64,000 nt of DNA. Origin: an uncultured Bdellovibrionales bacterium. GTDB lineage: Bacteria > Pseudomonadota > Alphaproteobacteria > Micavibrionales > GCA-2720935. The notes beneath the pieces were generated by a model. The model saw only the letters and a program-made list of their open reading frames with translations, made no database searches and was not told the origin of the DNA. Shown piece after piece: positions 28,685-50,791 of the stretch (its first letter is position 1; every line of letters starts with the position of its first letter). The DNA lies in contig CAYGOD010000003.1 of assembly GCA_964351525.1 (NCBI GenBank), positions 136,121 through 200,120 of the forward strand, written 5' to 3'. The position numbers and the translations under genes are program-made.

Positions 28685-31219
<2,535 letters not shown>

Positions 31220-31235
31220 AATACAACATTTTAAC

Positions 31236-31267
31236 AAAGCCCCTATAGAAATATAGGGGCTTTTTTT
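31236..31267. terminator. Bidirectional intrinsic terminator between gyrB and dotL
   Basis: AAAGCCCCTATA-GAAA-TATAGGGGCTTT then T run. Confidence 0.85.
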
Positions 31268-31314: not shown

Positions 31315-34227
31315 TTACTTATCGTCTGTATCTGTTGGGATATCCTGAACCGCGTCACCTTCCTCAAACAAACCAGATTGTACGGTATTGGCCGCAGACT
31401 TTAATATATCTTCGACATCAGGGCTTAGGCCTTTAGGCATTGTCATCGCTTGAGCAACAGGAATATCTTGTGCATTATCTGATGTTTCATTAATCGTATT
31501 AACAGAATCATCTTGATTGGGCAGATCTTCAAGTGTCGAAATACTCTCGCGTTCAGTCGCAACGACGGCTTGCCCATCCTCCATATCTTCATCCACTGTA
31601 TTCGTCACAAAGCTGTCCCAGCTCAACGCATCATCCGCTTCATCTGCTGTATCTTTTATTTCAAAGCCATTTGCAGTTACGGGTAAATCCATTGGATCGT
31701 CATCAGGAACAGAGAATGATGGTCCTTCTTCATTAAGCGGTGCTAGATCTGCGGCTATATTAACATCATCTAAAACATCAACATTATCTGACATAAAATC
31801 AGTTGCATTCATTTCATCCGATATTTGACTAACGATTTCTTGTTGAGGATTATCCATCTCATCATCAGCCGAAGACATAAAGTCCCCCCAAGATGAGCCA
31901 GTTGTATCTTCTTCCTCTGAGACACTATTATCAACCGATGCCAAAGCAGTCGGTACTGTTATATCATCCGCCTCAACCACCTTGTCATCTTCATCATCAG
32001 TCATGAAGTCAGCCCATGAAGAACCACTATCTTCTTGTTCTTCTTCCAATGATACAGACGGTACGGCTGGTGATGCCTGAGGTGTATCATCCTCATCATC
32101 ATCGCCCATAAGATCCATCCAACTCATGCCAGTGTCACTTGATGAATCCTCACTTGTTGAAGCAGAGACGGTTATCGGTGCAGATACTGTTGAATTTACT
32201 GGTGAACTTAGTGGCGCTAGTGCTGGTTCAGGTTTCTTATAATCATCCATAAAGCCCATACCGACTTTGGCAACAGCCATCGTTCCTTGCTCTAAGGCGC
32301 TATGATCAGCTTTTTTAGCCGCCGCAAAGCCATCAACCATATCTTGGATTTTATCTTCCGTTTCAACTTTTGGTGCGGCGCTTTCGGCGCTCCATCCACG
32401 GGTACGATAATTATCAATGAAGGTGTTAATGGCTTTCTTCTGACGTAATTTAGATTCATCTGGCTTTGGTGGTTCTAACATTTTTTGAATACGCATTGAT
32501 TTTGCGTTTCCAGGATTAGAATAGAAGAAACTGATTTCTTCTAACATTTCACCAAAGGTAACAACGGCATCTCCCTCTTTAAAGGCACGAAGGCCATCAT
32601 AAGAAGCACGTGCGCGCGATTGCATAGATGCATCTTGCTTACCAACAAAGGACGATGATAAACCACCGGTATTCGTTTGGAACCCTGAAACCTCAGCCAC
32701 CAAAACATCACCGACTGTTTTTTCAAAAAACTCTTTTGTTTGTGTTGGATCCTCAAGCTTACCAAAGATTTTTAAGTTACAGTTAGCCGTGATCGAACGT
32801 GCTTCTTCTTTGACGCGTTTTTCCAACGCGGGTAAATCCTGTGCGGCATAAACAAGACAGAAACCAAGAGAGCGCGCCTGTGCCGCCATAACTGCCATGC
32901 CCTGTGCGGCGTAATAACCAACCTCATCAAAAATACAAATAAATGGTGTGGCCGATTCAGAGACTTTATTCTCAATAGTACTTTCAACATCCCCCTCAAC
33001 ATCAGCACCAAGTGTAGATCCCATCATGCCCTTAATTGTTGCGGCAACAATTTTACCAAGGTTAGCGGCCTCATCACTAGATTTTTCAAGGGCAGGAATC
33101 AACACGACCAACATACGACGGTTAAGAACGACATCCGTCATATCAATATCGGCAGCTTCAGTTTCAAAAACATACCCATAGTCATCTGCCAAAGATTGCA
33201 ATGAACGTGTAAACTGCATTGATAGATAACCATGCTGTTGACGCACTGTCGATGTATCAACCATCGGCGCATCCGGCGGCATAGGTTTCTCATTACCATC
33301 ATCATCGAAAACATCATCTACATAGCCAGGTAACGTGTCCAAATACCCCTTAATACCCATAGTAATTTTCTTTGGTACATCGGGATCACGAGACAAACGA
33401 ATAACATCGGGGAAGTTAAGCGCATGACGAATAGTATTAATATTCAACGGAATTTCTTGGTGGTCGCGCTTCCATGTCATGGCGGGCATTAATGAACCGA
33501 TCAATGAAACAGCACGTTCTTTCCACATGGCGTTATCACCGCCCGCGTCAGGCATCAATGTTACCATCAAGTTTGTTAAATAAGAGGCCGAGCCACCAGA
33601 AAATGGATTCAACGTATTTGACGGTGCACCTGCATCAGAGTTACCCGTCATATAGTTTAACACTAATAAATCATCATCACGTCCAAAGCGTCGTGCCAAA
33701 GCAGACATTGAACTCCACAATCCTGTGTCTGCCTTACCATCGACAAAGACAAACCCAGACCCCCAACACAGAGCATTTGTTACCAATGAAGTAAGACCAA
33801 CCGTCTTACCAGAACCGGTCGTTCCCAAATATAAAACGTGGGTTTTAATATCATTATTCGTGTACCAAATCTCGCCATTTGTATCTTTTGCATTACCGAC
33901 ATACATGATCCCCTCTGGGCGCTTATTACGACCAGGACCATTATTATGCTCATCTTTAATGCCCAGCTGAGACGCCGACATCGGTAATTTCGCTGGTAAT
34001 GTATGACCGCGTTTTTTTAACCACCAAAAATAAAGGAGGCAAAACACGAAAATGAAATCTGCGCCATACGCAATGATATCAAAGAAAATAATCGCCACAG
34101 CACACAAAATGAAAACGATTGGCTGAAAACTTTTATCGAGTAAGCTATCACGCATTTTTTGCAGAGGTGAGCGTACGTCTCGTAACGTATTTTTATGCTT
34201 ATAATGATATTTTTTTGCAATAGCCAC
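31315..34227 (-). CDS. icmO: Type IVB coupling protein IcmO/DotL (TrbC-like) with long acidic C-terminal extension
   Basis: N-terminal TM pair; LYLGTTGSGKT Walker A; FVFVDGKAD; NTLNPF; IFDEVGYY Walker B; QARSLGF; next to dotM. Confidence 0.88.
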   Translation of the reverse strand: MAIAKKYHYKHKNTLRDVRSPLQKMRDSLLDKSFQPIVFILCAVAIIFFDIIAYGADFIFVFCLLYFWWLKKRGHTLPAKLPMSASQLGIKDEHNNGPGRNKRPEGIMYVGNAKDTNGEIWYTNNDIKTHVLYLGTTGSGKTVGLTSLVTNALCWGSGFVFVDGKADTGLWSSMSALARRFGRDDDLLVLNYMTGNSDAGAPSNTLNPFSGGSASYLTNLMVTLMPDAGGDNAMWKERAVSLIGSLMPAMTWKRDHQEIPLNINTIRHALNFPDVIRLSRDPDVPKKITMGIKGYLDTLPGYVDDVFDDDGNEKPMPPDAPMVDTSTVRQQHGYLSMQFTRSLQSLADDYGYVFETEAADIDMTDVVLNRRMLVVLIPALEKSSDEAANLGKIVAATIKGMMGSTLGADVEGDVESTIENKVSESATPFICIFDEVGYYAAQGMAVMAAQARSLGFCLVYAAQDLPALEKRVKEEARSITANCNLKIFGKLEDPTQTKEFFEKTVGDVLVAEVSGFQTNTGGLSSSFVGKQDASMQSRARASYDGLRAFKEGDAVVTFGEMLEEISFFYSNPGNAKSMRIQKMLEPPKPDESKLRQKKAINTFIDNYRTRGWSAESAAPKVETEDKIQDMVDGFAAAKKADHSALEQGTMAVAKVGMGFMDDYKKPEPALAPLSSPVNSTVSAPITVSASTSEDSSSDTGMSWMDLMGDDDEDDTPQASPAVPSVSLEEEQEDSGSSWADFMTDDEDDKVVEADDITVPTALASVDNSVSEEEDTTGSSWGDFMSSADDEMDNPQQEIVSQISDEMNATDFMSDNVDVLDDVNIAADLAPLNEEGPSFSVPDDDPMDLPVTANGFEIKDTADEADDALSWDSFVTNTVDEDMEDGQAVVATERESISTLEDLPNQDDSVNTINETSDNAQDIPVAQAMTMPKGLSPDVEDILKSAANTVQSGLFEEGDAVQDIPTDTDDK

Positions 34228-34270
34228 TTAGTCTATATTCCTACTTATGCGTATATTTTATTCATCTATC

Positions 34271-34771
34271 TTATTCTGCGTTATCGCTTGGTAAAAGCAC
34301 ATCATCCAGAAGGATCGGTGTGCCTGCTTCAATCATATTAATATCTGGTTTTTCGGTTTGTAACGGCAACGTTGCTTGGTTATGTTCAACATTTACCTTT
34401 TCATTGCCCAAGAAGAATGATCCAAACAGAACATACAAGATAACAAAAAATGCCGCAAAAATAATAAGGCTTTGCAACCAGCCCATTTTTGATCCCGCAT
34501 CTTGAACGTTATCATTTTTACGATCAGAAACGGTTAAAACATCTGTCACTTTTTGAAAAGCTGTTAGTGCTTCTTGATGGTCTTTAAAATCAACAACTGT
34601 CGTTGCTTCTCCTGACTCTGGCTCCATGATTAAATTTGTTTTAGTTTTTAGTTTCTTCAAAGAAAATGTTGCCATTTGAGCGGCTTGCAAATCACAGCGC
34701 CACAAAATAGGACTATCCCCATCTGTACGGGAAATAATAAGGGCATCATCTACTCTTTTAATATCAATCAT
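34271..34771 (-). CDS. Single-TM hypothetical protein between icmP and icmO
   Basis: About 95-aa soluble N-domain, one TM (WLQSLIIFAAFFVILYVLFGSFFL); tight operonic spacing. Confidence 0.75.
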   Translation of the reverse strand: MIDIKRVDDALIISRTDGDSPILWRCDLQAAQMATFSLKKLKTKTNLIMEPESGEATTVVDFKDHQEALTAFQKVTDVLTVSDRKNDNVQDAGSKMGWLQSLIIFAAFFVILYVLFGSFFLGNEKVNVEHNQATLPLQTEKPDINMIEAGTPILLDDVLLPSDNAE

Positions 34772-34784
34772 CTTTTATACCTTT

Positions 34785-35993
34785 TTATTTATTAGAACCT
34801 GCTGGTTTCATGATCCCACGCGTAGCTTTAGCACCACGGTAATCTAGCTTAGGAATTACGATAGGGTCGTTTTTAACCAAATAATCTCCTAAGGACTGAA
34901 CCGCCGATGCGACCTGTGGCATTGGAATAGCGCGATCCATCATCTTTTCCGCTGCGAAGTGAGACATAACCCCCATCGCCTCTGCATGAAAGGAACGACG
35001 GCCTAAGTTATTAAGCGGATACCAAAGATCACGGTCATGTCCGCGCAACCAAACAAAAGACGCCGATGCCATAACCCCACCCTTTGAACGCGCATATTGT
35101 AGAGCGCGCAACATCGCTGTCTTAACATAGGCATGTCTGTTTGCCTCTAAATATACTGCCTTTGTTAATTTTGCATCTTTTAAAATTTTATTTGTTTGTG
35201 CTTTTACCGCACCAGATATGATCAATCCCTTTTTCGGGTGCCAACACAGCGCGAGATTATTTAATAAATCATCCGCCTCTTTACGTTTACGAGAAGATTT
35301 TAGGGCAAAAATTGCAAAAAGAACGCGTTCATGGGCGTTCAAAGATCCTATCCCCTTCCAACGACGTCCCAATTGCTGAACAAATACATTCTTGGCAGCG
35401 ATCTCATCTAACTGACCATCGGGCATGGGTATCATTGAATGAGCAATAAACTCTTCGGGCGAAAGAGCTTCTGAAAAACGAGGCAACTCTGCTGGCACGG
35501 GTGCACCAGGAACACGAAATGGTTCATTATTAGGGTTATATTTCACAAAAGGCTTAATAACAGGGAATGTTTTTGCCTGTTCAACAATAAGATCATCCAA
35601 GCCCATTGTACGGTGATACAAAGCACCAGGACCACGAAAAACAGACCAAATTGCCATGAGCACCATGAAAAATGCGAAAGGCCATTTATATAAATCCATT
35701 GTAGCACGCGTAAATAATCCCATATGGGCGGTCTCTAGATCATCCTTGTGGGCGCTCCCCATAAAGTCCAATAAATCACGCGCAGAAATTTCTTGGCCAA
35801 ATGCCGCATCAACATGCGTATAGTTCTCACCAAAAATTAGAGCAATCAGTGAAAACTCACCGTAACGCAACCATCTTAGTCCGCTCATTAATTCAGCACT
35901 GAAAAAATACCAGATAGCAAAAGCCGCACCACCAATAACAAGAATTAATAATGCTAATAAAACAGGGCTGTCATCTTGACTTTGACCAGACAT
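34785..35993 (-). CDS. icmP: Type IVB secretion protein IcmP/DotM (TrbA-like)
   Basis: N-terminal TMs; ALSPEEF, F..QLG..W, HAYVKT, WLRGHDRDLWYPLNNLGR..AEAMGVMSH..AE. Confidence 0.88.
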   Translation of the reverse strand: MSGQSQDDSPVLLALLILVIGGAAFAIWYFFSAELMSGLRWLRYGEFSLIALIFGENYTHVDAAFGQEISARDLLDFMGSAHKDDLETAHMGLFTRATMDLYKWPFAFFMVLMAIWSVFRGPGALYHRTMGLDDLIVEQAKTFPVIKPFVKYNPNNEPFRVPGAPVPAELPRFSEALSPEEFIAHSMIPMPDGQLDEIAAKNVFVQQLGRRWKGIGSLNAHERVLFAIFALKSSRKRKEADDLLNNLALCWHPKKGLIISGAVKAQTNKILKDAKLTKAVYLEANRHAYVKTAMLRALQYARSKGGVMASASFVWLRGHDRDLWYPLNNLGRRSFHAEAMGVMSHFAAEKMMDRAIPMPQVASAVQSLGDYLVKNDPIVIPKLDYRGAKATRGIMKPAGSNK

Positions 35994-36295: not shown

Positions 36296-36370
36296 GCCGG
36301 CATAGCACAGTGGTAGTGCAGCGGTTTTGTAAACCGAAGGTCGGGAGTTCGAATCTCTCTGCCGGCACCA
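36296..36370 (+). tRNA. tRNA-Thr(TGT)
   Basis: GCCGGCA acceptor stem, GCAC/GTGC D-stem, loop TT-TGT-AA, GTTCGAA T-loop, encoded CCA. Confidence 0.95.
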
Positions 36371-50404: not shown

Positions 50405-50450
50405 AATAGATGTTGTATCTGATTTTTCAGGAACAGCTATGGTAATAAAC

Positions 50451-50754
50451 GTGCCTCGGAATAGGCGACGTGGACCCGGGGGCGGTACCCGGCGCCTCCA
50501 CCATTTTTAATTTTGTCGTTATCGGGCAAATGAATATGGGGGCGAAATAGGTTCGACACGCGTAATAAAGGTTGTATTTTTACTCGAGATAGTTCTCGTT
50601 AAAAGACTATTTAAATATAAATGCAAACGACAACTTTGCACCTGAAACAGCACGTATGGCCGCTTAATTGCGCCATATAGTTTCAAATTCAATTCCATAG
50701 CTTTTTGGTAAAGTTATGGTGGGGCACGAGCCGGCCTAGCAACAGAATAGGCTC
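50451..50754 (+). ncRNA. ssrA: Permuted two-piece tmRNA; tag (A)ANDNFAPETARMAA
   Basis: Acceptor piece ends CGCCTCC-A-CCA at 50503; coding piece starts GGGGGCG at 50538 (G3-U70); tag frame 50623-50667; outer ends approximate. Confidence 0.93.
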
Positions 50755-50791
50755 ATTTTTTTTGTTTTAAATTACAAGCCCCCACAACATC

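Follow-up and report, generated by a model that had tools for sequence, protein, structure and literature searches.

[quoted passage not shown] The window analyzed here, the whole stretch of 64,000 nucleotides from an uncultured alphaproteobacterium, carries at positions 31315 to 35993 a tight minus-strand operon consisting of dotM/icmP, a gene for a 166-amino-acid (aa) membrane protein, and dotL/icmO. A first-pass annotation had located this trio between gyrB and a tRNA-Thr gene; we recovered the three open reading frames (ORFs) at exactly those coordinates and on the minus strand, and both neighbors were confirmed by Pfam and ARAGORN. Here we ask whether the trio belongs to a working T4BSS and, if so, what that system may deliver and into which cells.

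The coupling operon and its setting

The features of the locus, in window coordinates, are as follows.

28724..31219, plus strand: gyrB, the end of a dnaN-recF-gyrB block and the downstream boundary of the operon (Pfam DNA_gyraseB, Toprim, HATPase_c)
31236..31263, no strand assigned: GC-rich hairpin with a 12-pair stem and a T-run, between the convergent gyrB and dotL (pattern-based scan only)
31315..34227, minus strand: dotL/icmO, whole gene, 970 aa (PDB, NCBIfam, and Pfam matches)
31315..32337, minus strand: C-terminal tail of DotL, residues 631 to 970 (composition, motifs, conservation profile)
32338..34227, minus strand: DotL residues 1 to 630, two N-terminal transmembrane (TM) segments and a VirD4-type coupling ATPase (PDB, Pfam, conservation)
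34271..34771, minus strand: middle gene, 166 aa, lineage specific (conserved position; no family match)
34785..35993, minus strand: dotM/icmP, 402 aa, inner-membrane subunit of the coupling complex (Pfam, NCBIfam, and PDB matches)
36296..36370, plus strand: tRNA-Thr(TGT), divergent from dotM and bounding the operon on its upstream side (ARAGORN)

The dnaN-recF-gyrB block is convergent with dotL, and the hairpin between them is likely a shared terminator of gyrB and dotL. On the other side, the tRNA-Thr gene is followed by a Na+/H+ exchanger gene, and neither an integrase nor a repeat indicative of an island was found at the tRNA. The GC content of the trio (0.41 to 0.44) equals that of the genome, which is 1.95 Mb in size and 99.99% complete.

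DotL aligned with Legionella pneumophila IcmO/DotL (PDB 6sz9_A) across residues 14 to 604 (E value = 1e-136) and matched the Pfam families TraG-D_C, TrwB_AAD_bind, and T4SS-DNA_transf, as well as NCBIfam TrbC_conju (NF041447; E value = 1.5e-110), the last with 371 bits, under the equivalog cutoff of 800 bits. Its Walker A (GTTGSGKT) and Walker B (FDE) motifs are intact and lie within blocks conserved among relatives, and across residues 120 to 510 the commonest residue of a column averages a frequency of about 0.9 (76 relatives). DotM carries hydrophobic segments toward its N terminus and a cytoplasmic DotM_C domain at its C terminus (Pfam PF23127; E value = 5.3e-50, 170 bits, cutoff 27); it also matched PDB 6sz9_B, IcmP(DotM), across residues 90 to 368 (E value = 2.2e-24) and NCBIfam DotM_IcmP_IVB (NF033890; E value = 1.1e-54) with 186 bits, under the cutoff of 230 bits. 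The initial identification of icmP/dotM and icmO/dotL homologues with intact motifs is thus borne out by profile and PDB matches and by the Walker motifs. Public annotations already call the latter gene icmO.

The DotL tail is hypervariable and 25% acidic, with a moderately conserved segment near residues 933 to 955 and three to four SSWxDFM-like motifs, repeats that are confined to this genome and the two relatives nearest to it (L009 and L010). It occupies the position of the adaptor-binding tail of Legionella DotL, with which it gave no alignment (PDB 6sz9_A). A FastTree phylogeny of DotL homologues groups the relatives from this order in a clade of their own (local support of 1.0), apart from the Legionella-type clade; in the tree, the distance from this DotL to IncI1 TrbC is about double that to Legionella DotL (6.0 and 3.1, respectively). 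Because the deeper nodes are weakly supported (0.3 to 0.78) and the neighbors are mostly unnamed metagenome proteins, with one from Niveispirillum, we name no donor lineage or sister group.

A conserved gene of no known family between dotM and dotL

The middle gene had been listed simply as unknown. It indeed belongs to no known family, with no significant match in Pfam, NCBIfam, or PDB profile searches, but it is a member of a conserved lineage-specific family: 75 of 76 relatives have in the middle position an ORF of 150 to 207 aa with one strong TM segment. W23 is invariant in this family, and a C-terminal motif, GVPxSADDFL, is conserved, reading GTPILLDDVLL in this genome. The protein comprises a PH-like domain (residues ~1 to 87), a single TM helix (residues ~94 to 119), and a short tail. 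Its AlphaFold2 model has a mean pLDDT of 81.5, reaching about 95 for residues 1 to 87, and the top Foldseek matches to the model are all PH domains. Because the PDB profile search was null and these PH matches were weak (none with an E value of ≤0.001; best, about 0.1), we call the protein PH-like without assigning it a specific relative. Homology to TrbB of IncI1 was ruled out (hhalign probability of 0.4%). On the basis of gene position and conservation, we propose that the middle protein is a lineage-specific accessory subunit of the coupling complex, and it may replace the IcmS-IcmW adaptor, which was not detected (see below).

The remainder of the T4BSS

The description of the trio as a stand-alone module holds within the local 64 kb but not for the genome, in which core machine genes occupy three other loci: one with dotI-H-G, a TraQ-like gene, dotN, and dotO; a second with dotD-C-B and icmT; and a third with dotA. 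In the genome search, strong matches were obtained for DotA (E value = 5.6e-93) and DotH (E value = 1.7e-71), and DotD, DotC, DotB, DotI, DotG, and the TraQ-like protein were matched as well. DotN matched a PDB profile (E value = 8e-20) and misses its NCBIfam equivalog cutoff; IcmT/TraK, at 85 bits, is over its cutoff. DotO/TraU is 27 to 29% identical to IncI1 TraU along 93% of its length (phmmer E value = 2.6e-102), and DotB scores 390 bits on dot_icm_DotB versus 238 bits on plasmid TraJ. The further dot genes that the first-pass annotation proposed to look for (dotA, B, C, D, G, H, I, N, and O), together with icmT, are therefore all present elsewhere in the genome.

The IcmS/IcmW profiles PF12608 and NF038222 had no match in the genome. 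Among 14 control genomes, PF12608 matched none, and NF038222 gave one subthreshold match, in Bacillus subtilis. Because these controls include no Dot/Icm organism, we report IcmS and IcmW as not detected rather than absent; IcmV was likewise not found in the genome, a weak negative with the same controls.

Several other genes adjoin the dotD-C-B locus. A DUF6782/Tox-MPTase4-like metallopeptidase gene upstream of dotD is not conserved in 11 relatives and is only a lead as an effector candidate. A DsbG-like gene is conserved upstream of dotD; as a counterpart of IncI1 TrbB it was rejected, having no detectable similarity (BLASTP E value = 2). An R64-like type IVb thin-pilus cluster encoding a PilS pilin and two PilV-like Shufflon_N proteins immediately follows dotD-C-B, icmT, and a TcpQ-like gene that is conserved and may be PilL, the first gene of the cluster. 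The pilus cluster is not adjacent in the 11 relatives and is therefore not counted as part of the T4BSS.

Conservation across the order

DotH was found in 145 of 151 sampled genomes of the order (114 of the 115 high-quality ones), covering every one of the 54 genera and 8 families sampled. Micavibrio aeruginosavorus HCB189, whose membership in the order is shown by identical DotH coordinates in two separate searches, has DotH, DotO, and DotA. The dotM-x-dotL layout is present in 75 of 76 relatives; in about 76 of 80 related loci, dotM precedes dotL by about 1.8 kb on the same strand, and gyrB is convergent downstream of dotL in about 45 of the 80. Both the layout and the gyrB neighborhood are thus conserved in relatives, and the order to which the predator M. 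aeruginosavorus belongs inherits the T4BSS as a core trait. Beyond the order, the same system is present in six further families of alphaproteobacteria with small genomes, whose DotL proteins are 52 to 58% identical. The finding is not wholly new: a 2022 marine survey mentioned in passing seven Micavibrionales genomes with this T4SS subtype (PMC9418006), and it and the public icmO annotations precede our analysis.

Expression in a cultured predator

[quoted passage not shown] In strain ARL-13, the gene order is gyrB, argS, a hypothetical gene, and icmO, with gyrB convergent. Expression indices in a supplementary table (attack/attachment phase) are 4.3/3.5 for icmO (GMV_383), 2.3/3.7 for the middle gene (GMV_384), and 1.7/3.0 for dotM (GMV_385), and those of dnaA, dnaN, and recF, tabulated beside the trio, are 0 in the attack phase. 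The trio is transcribed in both phases, at a level that is modest and not phase specific. The ARL-13 genome paper reported finding no evidence of type III or type IV secretion, proposed type I secreted hemolysins, and described islands with mobilization genes (PMC3189940). A 2025 review of contact-dependent predation names no T4SS for Micavibrio, and the literature that we searched held no paper on the function of a Micavibrio T4BSS and none tying a T4BSS to predation.

Proposed function and its alternatives

On balance, we favor the interpretation that the trio is the coupling operon of a complete, chromosomal, relaxase-free T4BSS that serves contact-dependent delivery, likely into Gram-negative prey. 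Homology, completeness, order-wide conservation, and synteny are observed, as are relaxase searches without a match and the transcription of the trio in a cultured relative; from these observations we infer protein translocation, prey as the target, and the role of the middle protein. In such a system, DotL would act as the hexameric coupling ATPase with DotM as its partner in the membrane; DotN, whose gene lies elsewhere, would complete the coupling core, and the PH-like/TM protein would join the complex as a lineage-specific accessory subunit. Substrates recruited by this complex would enter a channel (DotA, C, D, G, H, I, and IcmT) powered by DotO/DotB, which would deliver them on contact into a target cell. 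Gram-negative prey are the most likely target because the system belongs to the core traits of the order that includes the epibiotic predator M. aeruginosavorus.

The proposal in the first-pass annotation, that an alphaproteobacterium has a T4BSS domesticated for protein export and encoded at dispersed loci, gains support from the core genes, the lack of a detected relaxase, and order-wide inheritance. Neither of the two outcomes that the annotation had named as refuting it came about, since other core genes exist in the genome and no relaxase or integrase was found with the system. The annotation's suggestion of use against prey or host cells would be consistent with the direct data, namely, transcription of the ARL-13 trio in both phases and the precedent of Pseudomonas putida IsoF, whose kib T4BSS kills Gram-negative bacteria by contact-dependent effector delivery (PMC9519443). 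This Dot/Icm-like system directed against bacteria serves here as a functional model, likened by description and not by sequence. Whereas kib is carried by an integrase-bearing genomic island, includes icmW, and has an identified effector-immunity pair (PMC9519443), the genes here are dispersed core genes, icmW was not detected, and no substrate, effector-immunity pair, or translocation signal was identified.

The target could instead be a eukaryote, because NCBI labels the nearest relatives of this organism, which are metagenome-assembled genomes (MAGs), “Rickettsiales bacterium.” Delivery of effectors by this T4BSS into protists or other eukaryotic hosts, at least in this small-genome (1.95-Mb) lineage, would fit the fact that the well-studied chromosomal Dot/Icm systems all target eukaryotic cells (PMC11338181), as well as the occurrence of the system in the six other small-genome families. 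Several features link this system to that of Legionella: DotL, DotM, and DotN homologues (E values of 1e-136, 2e-24, and 8e-20, respectively), DotA, B, C, D, G, H, I, and O and IcmT, and a chromosomal arrangement in several loci with no relaxase detected are common to both. However, the Legionella/Coxiella coupling complex joins DotL-DotM-DotN with IcmS, IcmW, LvgA, DotY, and DotZ (PDB 6sz9 and 7ovb), whereas here IcmS, IcmW, and IcmV were not detected, the DotL tail is unalignable, and an extra PH-like/TM gene lies between dotM and dotL. IcmS/IcmW serve many Legionella effectors. Moreover, the host belongs to an alphaproteobacterial order that includes a bacterial predator rather than a parasite of eukaryotic cells, and that obligate predator (PMC3189940) has the system and transcribes the trio both when attacking and when attached to prey. 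We regard eukaryotic delivery as unlikely.

Much less probable still is an IncI-like MPF_I machine that conjugates or mobilizes DNA, with a relaxase acting in trans or belonging to a family other than MOBP, MOBQ, and MOBF. T4BSSs are closely akin to IncI conjugation systems, and the order DotM homologue-middle gene-DotL homologue matches trbA-trbB-trbC of IncI1/R64. Homologues of TraH, I, J, M, N, O, Q, U, and Y and TraK are also shared, as is the R64-like thin-pilus cluster after dotD-C-B, icmT, and the TcpQ-like gene, and ARL-13 has its mobilization-gene islands. Nevertheless, neither relaxases of the MOBP, MOBQ, and MOBF families (PF03432, PF03389, and PF08751) nor, by phmmer, IncI1 NikA/NikB had a match anywhere in this nearly complete genome. 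No integrase was found near any dot/icm locus, and the only three tyrosine recombinases of the genome are all on contig C1 rather than on the contig of the window, where IncI1 Tra/Trb queries match only the trio. These genome-wide results lend indirect support to the earlier statement that the 64 kb hold no relaxase, integrase, or other tra/dot gene; they also speak to the relaxase-bearing integrative element or plasmid clade that it had named as the countercase, as MOBP/MOBQ/MOBF, NikA/NikB, and an integrase were not found with the system. Unlike a mobile element, plasmid, or island, the loci are scattered among housekeeping genes and vertically conserved across the order. The middle gene is not TrbB, DotL is far under the TrbC equivalog cutoff and on a branch distant from TrbC, and the pilus is not adjacent in the 11 relatives.

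A decaying or co-opted remnant that plays no part in secretion, at which the local isolation of the trio from other dot/icm genes and the missed equivalog cutoffs of DotM, TrbC, and DotN might hint, is scarcely credible given the intact frames, conserved ATPase motifs, full component set, near-universal presence in the order, and transcription.

Implications for Micavibrio predation

Building on the interpretation of a prey-directed delivery system, we tentatively speculate that this T4BSS may serve the Micavibrio order and related alphaproteobacteria with small genomes as their central, ancestral organelle of predation, injecting effectors into Gram-negative prey via a cell-cell junction with the PH-like/TM subunit in place of IcmS-IcmW. 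If this is true, an obligate bacterial predator would for the first time have been shown to require a T4BSS. The coupling complex, a natural variant seemingly without IcmS-IcmW, helps in understanding substrate recognition, and the system takes Dot/Icm biology beyond parasites of eukaryotic cells. Because nearly all of the sampled high-quality genomes of the order have a complete relaxase-free T4BSS, the coupling operon of which is transcribed in both phases, this system is a concrete, mutable, and testable candidate for the machine by which Micavibrio, attached to the outside, kills and drains its prey.

Coupling operon in the window

The window (C3:136121-200120) belongs to a 1.95-Mb assembly of 29 contigs that is 99.99% complete. 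The first-pass annotation had described a three-gene dotM-x-dotL unit with intact motifs between gyrB and tRNA-Thr, and this description is borne out. We observed three tightly packed ORFs with intergenic gaps of 13 bp and 43 bp, the first preceded by the ribosome-binding motif GAAGAGG.

34785-35993, minus: dotM, ORF of 402 aa
34271-34771, minus: middle gene, ORF of 166 aa
31315-34227, minus: dotL, ORF of 970 aa
31236-31263: hairpin with a 12-pair stem, between dotL and the convergent gyrB

DotM has a C-terminal domain matching Pfam DotM_C (5e-50), aligns with Legionella pneumophila DotM (2e-24), and matches the NCBIfam DotM/IcmP model at a score below the equivalog cutoff. DotL residues 14 to 604 match L. 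pneumophila IcmO/DotL (1e-136), with both Walker A and Walker B intact. The trio is flanked by dnaN-recF-gyrB on one side and by tRNA-Thr, a Na+/H+ exchanger gene, NfeD, and an SPFH-domain gene on the other, and its GC content does not differ from that of the genome. The window also holds a permuted (two-piece) tmRNA gene (50411-50758, plus), as expected in an alphaproteobacterium.

In about 76 of 80 relatives' loci dotM precedes dotL by about 1.8 kb, and in 75 of those 76 the gap is filled by an ORF of 150 to 207 aa with a single strong transmembrane (TM) segment; gyrB is convergent downstream of dotL in about 45 of the 80. Synteny in relatives agrees with the arrangement first noted. The middle-gene family is divergent (median identity to the window's copy, 20%), yet one Trp is invariant, several other positions are nearly so, and the C terminus bears the motif GVPxSADDFL. 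AlphaFold2 predicts a confident seven-strand-plus-helix domain over residues 1 to 87 (pLDDT about 95), with a TM helix after it; the top Foldseek matches were all PH domains, none of them significant. In IncI1 trbA-trbB-trbC, TrbB holds the same position, but the two families are not homologous, and we rejected the middle gene as a TrbB homologue. From its gene position and conservation, we propose that the middle protein serves the coupling complex as an accessory subunit specific to this lineage.

[quoted passage not shown] In the window's genome and its two closest relatives, to which the repeats are limited, the tail is 25% acidic and bears three to four SSWxDFM motifs (residues 703, 738, 780, and 870 in the window, where the tail spans 31315-32337, minus); these could be short linear docking motifs. 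The Legionella DotL tail binds DotN, IcmS-IcmW, and LvgA; no alignment was obtained between it and the tail described here.

Remaining secretion genes

[quoted passage not shown]

About 70-81 kb: DotI, DotH, and DotG; a 534-aa protein of unknown family; two DUF6750 proteins, one TraQ-like; DotN; a DotO/TraU homologue of 991 aa
About 102-110 kb: a DsbG-like protein, a 349-aa unknown protein, and an SLT transglycosylase; DotD, DotC, and DotB; IcmT/TraK; a TcpQ-like protein of 452 aa
484 kb: DotA, a lone gene between a TipF-like EAL protein and an ABC transporter

DotB scored 390 bits on the Dot/Icm model versus 238 bits on plasmid TraJ. The search recovered DotA, -B, -C, -D, -G, -H, -I, -N, and -O, while IcmS, IcmW, and IcmV were not detected in the genome; these negatives are weak because no control genome carries a Dot/Icm system.

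The DsbG-like thiol:disulfide interchange protein (L007:9195-10082, minus, in an extracted locus) and the 349-aa protein lie upstream of SLT-dotD in most relatives (loci L091 to L101); the former has no detectable similarity to IncI1 TrbB. Also upstream of SLT-dotD-dotC-dotB on C2 is the gene of a putative metallopeptidase (DUF6782; L007:8089-9117, minus) that weakly matches Tox-MPTase4, a possible effector candidate that was not found at that position in 11 relatives.

Directly after dotD-C-B and icmT is an R64/IncI-like thin-pilus (type IVb) cluster (C2, about 90,000-103,500; L006:4075-17460, minus) comprising a TcpQ/PilL-like protein, PilN secretin, PilO, PilQ ATPase, PilR, a PilS-type pilin, and two PilV-like Shufflon_N proteins. 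In 11 relatives the TcpQ-like gene alone still adjoins dotB, the remaining pilus cluster not being adjacent. Because R64 PilV chooses the recipient cell, the PilV-like proteins could be prey-recognition adhesins.

Distribution and phylogeny

DotL relatives at 60 to 79% identity occur in the genomes of 311 species; among the best 80 almost every title names Micavibrio or an alphaproteobacterial MAG, and these 80 include the complete genome of the cultured predator Micavibrio aeruginosavorus HCB189. DotH was present in 145 of 151 genomes sampled from the order, nearly always as one match per genome, and in 114 of 115 high-quality genomes, 54 of 54 genera, and 8 of 8 families sampled. HCB189 is a member of this sample, with identical DotH coordinates in the order sample and its own search, and also carries DotO (65% identity) and DotA. 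HCB189 (G271:C1:2277728-2285621) and four other Micavibrio genomes (G273 to G276) have full-length DotA/TraY paralogues in tandem, three to four or more of them, versus one in the window's genome; such amplification is not known to be a feature of Legionella or IncI systems.

Outside the order, with one genome per family, DotH was found in 8 of 120 other families of the class, a count resting partly on an unpublished genome (G182). In the six of these eight genomes examined, all small, DotL identity was 52 to 58%, and the middle gene lay directly upstream of dotL in five.

In a FastTree phylogeny of the DotL ATPase region (147 representatives), the order's relatives form one clade with local support of 1.0. 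Measured from the window's DotL, the tree distance is 3.1 to a Legionella-type representative (968 bits to L. pneumophila IcmO/DotL, 6sz9_A), 3.2 to a Bosea megaplasmid homologue, and 6.0 to IncI1 TrbC; deeper nodes are weak (0.3 to 0.78). We name no donor lineage from the suggested phylogenetic comparison.

Expression and likely function

Expression indices in M. aeruginosavorus ARL-13 (attack / attachment), from supplementary file 4, an RNA-seq table, of the genome paper (PMC3189940)
GMV_380, gyrB, 2436 bp: 1.2 / 2.8
GMV_381, argS, 1779 bp: 0.2 / 1.3
GMV_382, hypothetical, 768 bp: 2.5 / 1.2
GMV_383, "icmO", 2583 bp: 4.3 / 3.5
GMV_384, hypothetical (middle gene), 582 bp: 2.3 / 3.7
GMV_385, hypothetical (dotM), 1215 bp: 1.7 / 3.0

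For dnaA, dnaN, and recF, listed just ahead of these genes, the attack-phase index is 0 (PMC3189940). The three genes are therefore expressed at a modest level in attack and attachment phases alike. The highest attachment index among the table rows covered, 1680, belongs to GMV_43, a hypothetical gene of 1107 bp (PMC3189940). The gene table calls GMV_383 "icmO," whereas the same paper's text states that evidence for a type IV secretion system (T4SS) is lacking (PMC3189940). A 2022 marine genome study lists MacSyFinder pT4SSi matches in "seven Micavibrionales" without further comment (PMC9418006). Predation reviews name no T4SS for Micavibrio, and our literature search found no paper tying a T4BSS to its predation; for Pseudomonas putida IsoF, killing of Gram-negative bacteria by a T4BSS is established (PMC9519443).

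The most likely function would be delivery of effectors into prey upon contact. Delivery into eukaryotic hosts is in our view unlikely. DNA transfer with an unseen relaxase, as kinship with IncI1/R64 conjugation might suggest, appears very improbable: relaxase families PF03432, PF03389, and PF08751 and IncI1 NikA and NikB queries had no match in the genome, extending what was first seen in the window, and the only three tyrosine recombinases are all on contig C1. That the transcribed trio is a nonfunctional remnant can practically be dismissed.

Both the observation and the interpretation of the first-pass annotation hold. Four points are new here: this T4BSS is a core system across the order, a PH-like/TM gene is conserved, IcmS-IcmW appear to be lacking, and the ARL-13 genome paper is contradicted. 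We are highly confident of the structural part, namely that these three genes form the coupling operon of a T4BSS that is ancient, passed on vertically, and free of a relaxase; joined to effector delivery into prey, the whole is a reading that we moderately favor.
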